Below are positions 31,615 to 54,567 of a stretch of 59,955 nt of DNA, piece by piece. The number at the start of each line of letters is the position of its first letter. Within the stretch, counting starts at the first letter, position 1. Below the pieces are notes generated by a model. It was given only the letters and a program-made list of their open reading frames with translations. It searched no databases and had not been told where the DNA came from. Origin of the DNA: Candidatus Parcubacteria bacterium (GTDB taxonomy: Bacteria > Patescibacteriota > Minisyncoccia > Phycocordibacterales > JBAYGS01); NCBI GenBank assembly GCA_039795895.1, contig JBDKKW010000004.1, positions 1-59,955 of the forward strand, read 5' to 3'. Both the position numbers and the translations under genes were made by a program.

Positions 31615-32232
31615 ATGCATTCTCGCACACTAGCGAAGCAGGTATGCACCATCATCACACTCGTGGGTATCGCTTTTGCTGTATGTGCTTTTACCTATCC
31701 TGACACACTCGGTCAGATACGTATTCGACTGAGCAGATGGAGTGAGTCTGGTACACGAACGACTGAGCTTGCTCTGCAACCCGGACTCCCCACCCTTCTC
31801 ATCCTCCCGAGACTCAATATCCGTGCGTCAGTTGAATCGATCGGCCTCACCAAAGACGGTGCACTCGACACTCCAAAAGAACCAGACATCGTCGCCTGGT
31901 TTAACGCCGGCCCTCGACCTGGAGAAAAAGGAAATGCGATTATCGACGGGCACTATGGATGGAAAGATGGTATTCCAGCGGTATTCGATTCCCTCTCTCA
32001 AACGCAAATTGGCGACAGTATTTCAATACAAGACGATCATGGCAACGTGATTACTTTTGTAGTACATAAGATACAAATCTACACCAAAGAAGACACTACT
32101 TCGGATATTTTTAATGCACAAGACAAAGATGCACACCTCGTCCTCATCACCTGCCAAGGTGCATGGAACAAGGCAAGCCAAAGTTATGCAGGGAGATTGA
32201 TCGTGTTTGCGGACAAAGTGGAGACACTGTAA
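31615..32232 (+). CDS. Class F sortase
   Basis: N-terminal TM, W...GPRPGEKGNAIIDGH (His), LITC (Cys), GRLIV (Arg). Confidence 0.92.
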   Translation: MHSRTLAKQVCTIITLVGIAFAVCAFTYPDTLGQIRIRLSRWSESGTRTTELALQPGLPTLLILPRLNIRASVESIGLTKDGALDTPKEPDIVAWFNAGPRPGEKGNAIIDGHYGWKDGIPAVFDSLSQTQIGDSISIQDDHGNVITFVVHKIQIYTKEDTTSDIFNAQDKDAHLVLITCQGAWNKASQSYAGRLIVFADKVETL

Positions 32233-32301
32233 CTCGGGTATTTTTTAATGCGCTCAGAGGGAAATTGTGCTACAGTATTTTGCGACTCGAAGAGAGTCCA
32301 C

Positions 32302-32389
32302 GGAGACGTGGTGGAGTGGTCTAACATACCTCTTTGCTAAAGAGGCAGGGCCTTTAAAGCCCTCGAGGGTTCGAATCCCTCCGTCTCCG
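32302..32389 (+). tRNA. tRNA-Ser(GCT)
   Basis: Acceptor GGAGACG/CGTCTCC, G73, anticodon arm CCTCT-TTGCTAA-AGAGG, long variable arm, GAGGG-TTCGAAT-CCCTC. Confidence 0.96.
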
Positions 32390-32391
32390 CA

Positions 32392-32582
32392 ACGTCAATG
32401 AAAAATACCGCGGAAAAGGTATTTTTCATTGACGTCATGTTTGAGACGGAGGGATTCGAAAGACGCAGACGGAGAAATTCGCAAGAATTTCTGACCGGCG
32501 AGTCGGGGTCGAGAGTACTTAGATTTTTGTGAGCAAAGCGAAACAAAAAGCTTAGTAACTCGTGACCGGATCCCTCCGTCTC
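32392..32582. repeat. tRNA-associated cassette 1 (hairpin, antisense 3' end, structured insert, sense 3'-end copy)
   Basis: 18-bp hairpin 32392-32435; 32443-32460 is the reverse complement of tRNA 32370-32387; 32570-32582 is a direct copy of the tRNA 3' end. Confidence 0.85.
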
Positions 32583-32601
32583 TTTCCCCAAGTCCCCATC
32601 T

Positions 32602-32688
32602 GGAGAGATGGATGAGTGGTTTAAATCAACGGTTTACTAAACCGTCGTTCCTTAATTGGAACCGTGGGTTCGAATCCCACTCTCTCCG
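32602..32688 (+). tRNA. tRNA-Ser(ACT), rare A34 anticodon
   Basis: Acceptor GGAGAGA/TCTCTCC, G73, anticodon arm ACGGT-TTACTAA-ACCGT, long variable arm GTTCC/GGAAC, GTGGG-TTCGAAT-CCCAC. Confidence 0.93.
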
Positions 32689-32690
32689 CA

Positions 32691-32818
32691 GGAGTTTAAA
32701 ATGAAGTTTTAAAGTGGGATTCGAAAAGCTTCTCCCATATTTTCAAACGATTCTTATCGTGCGAAAATGGGAAAGCTGTACTGCGACTGTAAGTCGAGAA
32801 ATTCCCACTCTCTCCGCA
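32691..32818. repeat. tRNA-associated cassette 2
   Basis: 32713-32725 is the reverse complement of tRNA 32669-32681; 32803-32818 is a direct copy of 32675-32690; internal hairpins lie between. Confidence 0.85.
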
Positions 32819-32888
32819 AAATAAAATCGCCAAAGGTGAGATTCACAGGCAAGATATGACCCTCTGAGGAGGTGGTATAATTGCAACC

Positions 32889-33881
32889 ATGGAAACACAA
32901 GGTGAAAACACTTCTAGACTTATTCTTAAGAACGAACCGAAATTATCTGAACACGAAGCACAGAGTACATTCAACGAGAGGCGGATAAGCCTTGTTCCCT
33001 TAGTTAGAGACTTTATTTCGACCCACGAAAGATTTAAAGACAAAGAAGTTAGTATTACATTTGCTCACAAAGGTGTTTCATCTCTGATAAGTATCATAGA
33101 GGTGGACAATGAGAAAGTTGTTTTAAAGATTCCACTAGGTGGCGGTCATTCTAGAGGTGAAGCTTTGTTTCTGAAAGTATGGGCTGAAGCAGGAGTTAAG
33201 GTACCCCACGTAATAGAAGAGGGTGTTTTGGGTGAACACGCTTACACACTAATGGAGTATGTAGACGCACCTATTTTAGGGGAAACGTATAATAAACAAG
33301 AGTGTATCGAAAAGGGAGTTTATGTTGAAATGGGAAACATGCTTCGTCTCATGCACGAACCAAAAGCAGAAGGCTACGGTCGTGTTATTGACGGAAAAGG
33401 AGAGTATGCAGAATTCACAGATTTACTTTCAGGTGAAGACCTGCAAAGAAGGGTTAAGTACGTTACAGATCACAAACTTCTTGGAGATGAGCACGGAGTA
33501 CTATCTCTTGCGTTTGAAATTCTTACTGAACATGTCCGCAGAGAGAACAAAAGCAGTTATTGTCACGACGATTTTGGTACCTACAATATGTTTGCAACAC
33601 ACCCAATTACAGTTTTTGATCCGAATCCTAGATTCAATAATCGCTATTTGGATTTGGGTCGTACCATACTACTTGGTATAGCTCACGATGGTATCTTCTC
33701 TGAAAAATTAGTTGATAGTTATTTTGAAGGTAATCCGTACGACCAAAAAGCTTTGCATGCATCAATATTACTCAATGGCTATATGAAATTTTATTATTGG
33801 AGTAAAGTAAAAAGATTCAAAAATATAAAAAACGTTCAGGATTACCTTATTAAGAATAAGCACTTGTTGATAACCACTTAA
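32889..33881 (+). CDS. Aminoglycoside phosphotransferase/choline kinase-like protein
   Basis: VVLKI, VPHV, LMEYV, Brenner motif CHDDFGTYN, VFDP, DLG; visibly AT-rich. Confidence 0.8.
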   Translation: METQGENTSRLILKNEPKLSEHEAQSTFNERRISLVPLVRDFISTHERFKDKEVSITFAHKGVSSLISIIEVDNEKVVLKIPLGGGHSRGEALFLKVWAEAGVKVPHVIEEGVLGEHAYTLMEYVDAPILGETYNKQECIEKGVYVEMGNMLRLMHEPKAEGYGRVIDGKGEYAEFTDLLSGEDLQRRVKYVTDHKLLGDEHGVLSLAFEILTEHVRRENKSSYCHDDFGTYNMFATHPITVFDPNPRFNNRYLDLGRTILLGIAHDGIFSEKLVDSYFEGNPYDQKALHASILLNGYMKFYYWSKVKRFKNIKNVQDYLIKNKHLLITT

Positions 33882-49566: not shown

Positions 49567-49642
49567 GCGCCTGTAGCTCAGTTGGTAGAGCAGGTCTCTT
49601 ATACAGACAAGGTCGGGGGTTCGATCCCCTCCAGGCGCACCA
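49567..49642 (+). tRNA. tRNA-Ile(TAT)
   Basis: GCGCCTG/CAGGCGC acceptor, A73, encoded CCA, anticodon loop CT-TAT-AC, GGGGG-TTCGATC-CCCTC. Confidence 0.92.
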
Positions 49643-54054: not shown

Positions 54055-54456
54055 GGGGATGATCGGCCTAGACAGGAGACTTATGTAGTATTGCGCATTG
54101 TGGAGCTCCATTAACTCCTAAATCTGATGGAAATTGTAACTGCAAAAACAGTTGCTCGAGCAAAGTCTATTGTGTCACCATTTTTTGGTGCCAAGGACCT
54201 TGCTTTCGCTTACGCATTAGCCTAAGCGACATTGACCAAGCTCTCTCCACGGGGTTTGGACCCAGTGTTATATAGTGGATTAGAATATATCTATTTTCCC
54301 GAGATACATTCGAAACTAAGGGAATCGGCGATGGTGAGTTTTGCTCATTCAATATCACACTCGCTTAAATCTGCTCACGCAGAAAAAATCAGCTATACAA
54401 TGTAGATCCAATATTAACTATTCTCTTGCACCCGAGTTCGATTCTCGGCATCTCCA
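54055..54456 (+). ncRNA. ssrA: tmRNA
   Basis: GGGGATG/CATCTCC-A acceptor with G3-U70, T arm CCGAG-TTCGATT-CTCGG, tag frame 54142-54225 ending ALA-stop, next to smpB; terminator ~54465-54489. Confidence 0.95.
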
Positions 54457-54567
54457 CTGCGTACAAAACCACCCGAAAGGGTGGTTTTGTTTAACCTTGA
54501 CATATTTATTATTAATGCTAACATGATAAGCGGAATCGTCCCTCAACAACATCAAAAAAGACTACGC

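Follow-up and report, generated by a model that had tools for sequence, protein, structure and literature searches.

A serine tRNA gene with the anticodon ACU is present in the genome of a member of the Parcubacteria and probably encodes a non-inosine A34 tRNA that reads the codon AGU by Watson-Crick pairing, alongside the standard tRNA-Ser(GCU). The gene lies in a stretch of 59,955 nucleotides, analysed here over its whole length and called the window, which is contig C4 of a source genome (G000) of 860,145 bases in 31 contigs with a completeness of 99.33%. We also consider it reasonably likely, as one joint statement, that tRNA-Ser(ACU) represents a natural and long-conserved exception in which an unedited A34 reads AGU alone in a split codon box and the presence of the gene co-evolves with AGU usage, and that this tRNA is used in roughly one in five genomes of a single Parcubacteria order, in scattered Patescibacteria outside it and in many phages. 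If true, this exception would allow the avoidance of unmodified A34 elsewhere to be studied in a natural setting.

The scarcity of unmodified A34 tRNAs across life is an open question that tRNA-Ser(ACU) would make testable on natural molecules. According to the available part of a 2021 review, A34 is 'universally missing' from the Ser-Arg split box (PMC8007984). The available text of a 2026 preprint by Raval et al. describes split-box A34 genes as just sporadic in GtRNAdb genomes, states that the authors' own experiments 'sharpen the paradox' of A34 absence and, within that text, makes no mention of Patescibacteria or candidate phyla (bioRxiv 10.64898/2026.05.15.725136). In a literature search covering Ser-ACU/ACT, A34 in Patescibacteria and missing tRNA genes, partly judged by titles and the starts of abstracts, we found no description of a natural bacterial or phage tRNA-Ser(ACU); Figures S10-S12 and Table S2 of the preprint may list sporadic Ser(ACT) predictions. 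Shared by phages and a clade of bacteria free of TadA, and conserved in structure, Ser(ACU) is a natural counter-example to the absence of A34 from split boxes, and Ser(ACU) genes in CPR and phage genomes should not be dropped as errors during annotation.

The tRNA-Ser(ACU) gene is real and represents neither an error nor a dead gene. It occupies about positions 32602..32688 of the plus strand, where ARAGORN calls a tRNA-Ser(act) (32602-32689, anticodon at tRNA position 35) and the Rfam family RF00005 matches over its full model (1-71) at 32602-32688 with 59.0 bits, compared with a gathering score of 29, and an E value of 3.2e-10. The Rfam alignment forms a cloverleaf with all four helices and without a single non-canonical pair flagged. 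The acceptor stem as read from the sequence consists of 7 pairs (GGAGAGA/TCTCTCC), the variable arm is long, the discriminator is a G at 32688 and CCA is not encoded. Both the sequence and ARAGORN place the anticodon ACT at 32636..32638, with A34 at 32636, inside the anticodon loop TTACTAA (32634-32640, plus strand) in which U33, U36 and A37 are present. A long variable arm and G73 are serine identity elements, and the anticodon is not. The discriminator G is invariant in 49 of 49 aligned Ser(act) copies, so the serine identity features are present. ARAGORN, Rfam and the sequence all agree with the preliminary description of the gene, made from the sequence alone, as an intact class II serine tRNA with G73 and paired stems.

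Apart from the rarity of the anticodon, nothing suggests that the gene is a pseudogene or that a copy of Ser(GCT) was misassembled or misread. Across 32624-32689, a contig from a DNA run (possibly that of the source sample) shows 0 differences from the window, and one DNA run and three RNA-library runs give no second letter for position 32636. A sequencing slip at this A can be dismissed, a conclusion for which the same loop in 83 other genomes of the order is the more telling evidence. The gene is carried by 84 of 401 order genomes and by many viral contigs, compensatory changes affect 18 of 25 pairs in its stems, and the ACT genes of the order mostly group apart from the GCT clade. An origin by error or decay is thus exceedingly improbable and, given the 84 of 401 genomes and the covariation, refuted for practical purposes. 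Around the gene, a simple consensus scan of 32150-32900, of a kind that is uninformative for CPR, found no promoter or terminator. In a permissive Rfam search of 32200-32900, all matches besides the two tRNAs fell below their family gathering scores and consisted of microRNA-precursor, plastid UTR and sX4 models placed on long hairpins or on the antisense strand of the tRNAs.

Judged by the substitutions among its homologues, the structure of tRNA-Ser(ACU) is under selection. We aligned 49 distinct Ser(act) genes over 90 columns, with the cloverleaf drawn from the first sequence. Standard pairs make up 99.5% of 1212 cells in the 49 copies versus 79.3% after shuffling, and the compensatory changes in 18 of 25 pairs are double-sided. 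The covariation score is 0.581 versus 0.182 for shuffled alignments, with 0 of 500 shuffles as high and slid controls at 0.056-0.103. All five pairs of the variable stem show covariation. All 49 copies have, without variation, a canonical anticodon loop with U33 and A37 and the canonical T-loop GTTCGAATC; because the search pattern partly fixed both loops, this set gives no measure of their conservation. Copies derived from BLAST, which were chosen without the pattern, show the same anticodon loop.

Ser(act) is concentrated in the order of the source genome and scattered across the phylum. After a BLAST search against 61 relatives, ARAGORN identified Ser(act) in 13 of the best 30 loci; all BLAST matches of at least 82% identity are Ser(act), and the weaker ones are Ser(tga), Ser(gct) and Ser(gga). 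An order-wide pattern defined by nothing but the anticodon loop and the T-loop (TTACTAA and GTTCGAATC, 24-42 bases apart) is present in 84 of 401 order genomes, 80 of 362 high-quality genomes and 53 of 223 genera, which settles the question of whether the gene is absent from all related genomes. Read backwards as a control, the pattern gave 6 matches. Three of 88 forward matches are not tRNA-like, each in a genome that also holds a good match, and ARAGORN called Ser(act) at 30 of 30 fetched loci. Across a phylum-wide sample the pattern matches 18 of 401 genomes: 4 of 8 in the same order, 1 of 16 in the same class and 13 of 377 in other classes, where ARAGORN rejected two of the 13 and about 11 of 377 genomes are left. 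Because the pattern requires exact loops, these counts are lower bounds and a missing match does not equal absence. With 317 of 401 order genomes lacking a pattern match, the gene is dispensable at clade level. In 29 of 53 distinct genomes, the Ser(act) locus has a Ser(gct) gene no more than about 1.5 kb away, in the same orientation in 12 cases and on the other strand in 17, which indicates that the A34 gene is an addition to the G34 gene and not a substitute for it.

The partner gene in the window is the standard AGY reader tRNA-Ser(GCU), located at about 32302..32390 of the plus strand (ARAGORN; Rfam 57.2 bits), with Ser(act) following 212 bases after it. The two share a class II serine body, G73 and the codon box, and are 63% identical in G000 when the anticodon loop is masked, in line with the earlier statement that a well-diverged Ser(GCT) stands alongside. 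The anticodon stem of the Ser(UGA) of G000 is identical to that of Ser(ACU), and the mean identity of ACT genes is mildly higher to Ser(UGA) (0.66) than to GCU genes (0.585). In a poorly resolved tree of 104 serine tRNAs, built on 80 columns without the anticodon loop, one set with a support of 99 unites 34 of the order's ACT genes with three long-branch GCT genes. A separate clade is formed by 27 GCT genes, the ACT genes are not nested in this main GCT clade, and the genes closest to them with another anticodon are Ser(tga) genes, the one in G000 among them. With only 80 columns, the tree does not allow a single origin of the ACT genes or a parent isoacceptor to be named.

Inosine at A34 is unlikely in G000, given that TadA was not found and that the sole deaminase-fold gene sits beside thyA. 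Two Pfam deaminase models identify one and the same gene, C5:1381-1941, which lies head to head with thyA (thymidylate synthase) and overlaps its start. Its best NCBIfam match is ComEB at 27 bits (cut-off 219), with an E value of 0.015 for the TadA model, and it is probably a divergent dCMP deaminase. Searches with Pfam, NCBIfam and a TadA model thus revealed no TadA in this 99.33%-complete genome; the TadA model gave no match in G000 and exceeded its cut-off in 0 of 121 order genomes. Some match to it was obtained in 17 of the 121, nine of them with 53-80 bits and below the cut-off. These homology searches cover recognisable deaminases, and an unrelated deaminase, another modification of A34 or a small gene hidden in an assembly gap is outside their reach. 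Among carriers of Ser(act), 0 of 20 have a TadA-like match, compared with 17 of 101 genomes without the gene pattern, a difference that is not significant (Fisher two-sided p 0.07), and mutual exclusion of TadA-like genes and Ser(act) is not claimed. The nine TadA-like deaminases of 53-80 bits belong to G063, G027, G014, G085, G034, G080, G048, G115 and G041, all in the 121-genome sample in which no credible Arg(ACG)-type tRNA pattern was found; this pattern occurs in 1 of the 121 order genomes, in a stretch that is not tRNA-like. Relatives carry Arg(gcg) according to ARAGORN on the fetched loci. In the available text of Shulgina and Eddy, tRNA-Arg(ACG) is apparently missing from CPR and GCG is used instead (PMC8629427).

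It is quite unlikely that tRNA-Ser(ACU) is a functional tRNA whose A34 is converted to inosine or another base by an unrecognised enzyme, so that it would read beyond AGU. Such a conversion would be in keeping with the statement, in the available part of one paper, that nearly all known genome-encoded A34 tRNAs are deaminated (PMC11066159), and candidate enzymes could be sought in the one deaminase-fold gene of G000, the substrate of which is unproven, or among the TadA-like deaminases of nine order genomes. Inosine in Ser(ACU), unlike in Arg(ACG), would however misread AGA, an arginine codon that accounts for 5.1 per 1000 codons in the long ORFs of G000 and has its own tRNA-Arg(UCU). The substrate loop of TadA is UACG. 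The loop of Ser(ACU) is UACU, so that neither the enzyme nor an ACG-type loop is found here. The neighbourhood of thyA and the ComEB/dCMP deaminase score of the only candidate also argue against conversion, as does, at a non-significant p of 0.07, the lack of any of the 20 sampled carriers among the 17 TadA-matching genomes. In two RNA libraries from wastewater, contigs spanning 32618-32690 show 4-7 differences from the window, which indicates that they come from relatives, and list no change at 32636. The lack of A>G at this position only hints at an unedited A, as the RNA-library contigs, which extend over both serine tRNA genes, may contain DNA, drop minor variants and are no proof of transcription, ends or levels. 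An ACU anticodon was also not deaminated in E. coli: in the available text on an orthogonal ACU tRNA, cDNA carried only T opposite A34, excluding inosine despite the presence of E. coli TadA (PMC11066159).

An unmodified A34 that is dedicated to AGU, as put forward in the preliminary description, consequently stands as the best-supported reading and is supported in part, on indirect evidence: no TadA or Arg(ACG) was found, the stems covary, carriers show a link to AGU preference and published reporter data exist for an ACU tRNA. In this tRNA, SerRS would most likely carry out charging through the long variable arm and G73 despite the ACU anticodon, which plays no part in serine identity; G000 contains one SerRS gene with an N-terminal arm domain (75.2 bits). 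In an organism without TadA, A34 would stay adenosine or at least never become inosine, and on the ribosome ACU and AGU would form three Watson-Crick pairs, resulting in AGU-only reading. tRNA-Ser(GCU) would still read AGC, plus AGU by wobble, and Arg(UCU) and Arg(CCU) would read AGA and AGG. The benefit could be faster or cleaner decoding of AGU, which accounts for 70% of AGY codons in G000.

The tRNA set of G000 places ACU in a split box in which every codon has its own tRNA. ARAGORN identified 41 tRNA genes, including five for serine (cga, gga, tga, gct, act), three for arginine (cct, tct, tcg) and Ile(gat) and Ile(tat), and act is the only anticodon among the 41 that starts with A. The box it serves is not four-fold, AGU being shared out in a Ser/Arg box that also contains Arg(UCU) and Arg(CCU), and with ACU, GCU, UCU and CCU all present AGN is the only box in G000 with a cognate tRNA per codon. 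The set of wobble-modification genes is reduced and not minimal. A TilS model found nothing in the G000 genome and MnmE gave only weak GTPase-domain matches, and neither TadA nor these two were found; MnmA (398.7 bits), Tgt (459.3 bits) and TsaD (352.9 bits), the last for t6A37 next to U36, are above their cut-offs. The wider suggestion of a modification-poor, Watson-Crick-based decoding accordingly holds for TadA, TilS and MnmE and fails for MnmA, Tgt and TsaD, and only one NNY pair is served by A34 among the 41 tRNAs. With TilS not found, AUA is probably read by a UAU anticodon and not by lysidine-modified CAU; the tRNA-Ile(TAT) lies at 49567-49642 of the window (67.1 bits), and AUA amounts to 6.9 per 1000 codons in G000. 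Neither Arg(GCG) nor Arg(ACG) was found by BLAST or relaxed ARAGORN in the 31 contigs of the assembly, and CGT and CGC are common codons. CGN reading could be explained either by Arg(UCG) serving all four codons or by an arginine tRNA gene in an assembly gap. Two tRNA-Trp(cca) genes are located on C1 and C18, and the window also contains a tmRNA at 54055-54459 (110.1 bits) with the predicted tag peptide ARAKSIVSPFFGAKDLAFAYALA.

Carriers of Ser(act) show a modest link to AGU usage. The 702 long ORFs of G000 contain 3325 AGT and 1422 AGC codons (70% AGT), a bias that is the second strongest U preference of the 16 NNY pairs. For a comparison between genomes, we used 20 same-family pairs of a carrier and a non-carrier, chosen before codons were counted, with up to 40 kb per genome, and measured AGU preference by subtracting the proportion of T-ending codons among all other NNY codons from the proportion of AGT among AGY codons. 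In these partial genomes, analysed with a crude ORF caller, 16 of 20 pairs show the stronger preference in the carrier, with a median difference of +0.06 (Wilcoxon p 0.008; sign test p 0.012). When both members of a pair had to contribute 60 or more AGY codons, the carrier was higher in 14 of 17 pairs. Four of the 20 pairs go in the opposite direction, and in one carrier (G055) AGU makes up just 37% of AGY codons. Eight presumed translation genes on contig C11, named by eye as L2, L23, L4, L3, S10, EF-Tu, EF-G and S12 with only S10 confirmed, contain 13 AGT and 3 AGC codons, and these 16 AGY codons are too few to serve as a test of translational selection.

Comparison with known A34 tRNAs shows which properties are particular to Ser(ACU). 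In Mycoplasma, the A34 of tRNA-Thr(AGU) is unmodified. Natural bacterial A34 besides Arg(ACG) comprises, in the available parts of two sources, this Mycoplasma tRNA and Leu(AAG) or Thr(AGU) in some Firmicutes (PMC8007984; bioRxiv 10.64898/2026.05.15.725136). Like these, Ser(ACU) is genome-encoded and kept over evolutionary time in small genomes, and TadA is unneeded in both cases if A34 stays unmodified. Unlike Ser(ACU), the Mycoplasma and Firmicutes tRNAs serve four-fold boxes in which misreading is harmless and often replace the G34 gene; Ser(ACU) belongs to a split Ser/Arg box and coexists with Ser(GCU) in a genome in which TadA was not found. The available preprint text reports a TadA homologue in 88% of species with non-ACG A34 tRNAs (bioRxiv 10.64898/2026.05.15.725136). 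The tRNA-Arg(ACG) of most bacteria, which operates with TadA, likewise has a gene-encoded A34 and an ACN anticodon. Its A34 becomes inosine and reads CGU, CGC and CGA.

Engineered ACU tRNAs of E. coli, either an orthogonal tRNA from M. jannaschii or a native-backbone tRNA-ANN, have the same anticodon as Ser(ACU). With ACU in the orthogonal tRNA, Schmitt et al. observed, in the part of their paper available, a reassignment of 9.4% at AGU and 0.36% at AGG, with AGC and AGA under the detection limit (PMC11066159). According to the available text of Raval et al., overexpressed split-box A34 tRNAs tend to be costly in E. coli and tRNA-ACU is beneficial (bioRxiv 10.64898/2026.05.15.725136). As far as these partly available sources go, the split-box A34 anticodon that is tolerated in the laboratory, being AGU-specific and beneficial in E. 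coli, is thus the one conserved here, and reading of AGU, lack of inosine and lack of a fitness cost, which were measured for the engineered tRNAs, would be expected for Ser(ACU). The engineered tRNAs are constructs in a foreign or mutated body, and Ser(ACU) is a natural gene with its own conserved body.

Ser(ACU) genes are also found in phages. At least 120 viral stretches among IMG/VR contigs match a stricter pattern (GTTTACTAAAC .. GTTCGAATC). All 80 viral loci listed were confirmed as Ser(act), usually among genes for Asn, Gln, Thr, Glu, Tyr and Ile(tat), the last being present in seven of the Ser(act) arrays among these loci, and none of the 80 has Ser(gct) within 300 bases. The phage genes share the anticodon stem-loop GTTTACTAAAC and the class II serine body with the window gene, are organized in tRNA arrays and have, among the 80 loci listed, bodies at most 85% identical to it. 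A recent phage origin of the window gene is therefore unsupported, the best of the 80 viral copies listed being 85% identical.

Spread by phages or other elements, with the gene kept by transfer or as an insertion target and contributing little to decoding in the host, is an unlikely explanation for its presence. It would account for the patchy distribution (53 of 223 genera, mixed within families), for the viral contigs, at least 120 in number, with Ser(act) in tRNA arrays at 80 of 80 loci listed, and for the structured elements behind the gene that copy tRNA 3' ends. It would also fit the finding that all 87 bases of the window Ser(ACT) are shared with its counterpart in G052 (100% identity), which belongs to another family, and that the copy in G001, from the same genus, is 95% identical. 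The flanks of the G052 locus (L002, G052:C5:46751-49837) are unlike those of the window, and its GCT gene is 86% identical to that of G000. This identity and the patchy distribution could be a result of horizontal transfer or gene conversion, neither of which is an argument against function, as mobility and function can coexist. Against a merely accessory gene, the flanking genes are ordinary chromosomal ones without an integrase among them, the best of the 80 viral copies listed is just 85% identical, and linkage to Ser(GCT) is seen in 29 of 53 genomes versus 0 of 80 viral loci listed. The codon-usage association and the strict conservation of structure point to a use in translation.

Upstream of the serine tRNA pair are genes for PilM, a phosphoribosyltransferase, two NUDIX proteins and, directly upstream, a sortase, and downstream follow a kinase-fold gene, an HhH-GPD glycosylase gene and RecG. 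The sortase gene is a loose hint of a role outside translation, and the available part of the 2021 review proposes non-canonical roles for 'missing' tRNAs (PMC8007984). A function as amino-acid donor for the cell wall or as regulatory RNA, with no AGU decoding, is nevertheless very unlikely, considering that the anticodon loop, U33, A37 and the T-loop are canonical and, partly fixed by the pattern, invariant in 49 copies, that gene presence tracks AGU usage and that phages hold the gene in tRNA arrays of the decoding type.

Both serine tRNA genes of the window are followed by structured trailer elements that look like members of a family of small insertions targeting tRNA 3' ends. Trailer element A, outside the tRNA and behind tRNA-Ser(GCU) (about 32391..32585, plus strand), forms a hairpin and contains a conserved core between an inverted (32441-32460) and a direct (32570-32585) copy of the Ser(GCU) 3' end. 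Its predicted fold over 32436-32590 has an energy of -66.8 kcal/mol (z -6.5), and a homologue of 77% identity is located behind the Ser(ACT) of G052. Trailer element B, behind tRNA-Ser(ACU) (about 32690..32817, plus strand), carries an inverted (~32713-32728) and a direct (~32797-32817) copy of the Ser(ACU) 3' end around a conserved core, with a fold z of -4.0 and an 86% homologue behind the Ser(ACT) of G026. The core of element B recurs with 85% identity behind the tRNA-His of G000 (C14:12704-12794), where it is flanked by copies of the tRNA-His 3' end. Relatives appear to lack element A, as expected of an insertion: contigs from the RNA-library runs X19 and X20 fuse a Ser(GCT)-like gene with one resembling Ser(ACT), leaving out 217 bases (32391 to 32609), with 18 other letters between the two serine genes at the X20 joint, and in G055 Ser(gct) and Ser(act) are only 7 bases apart.
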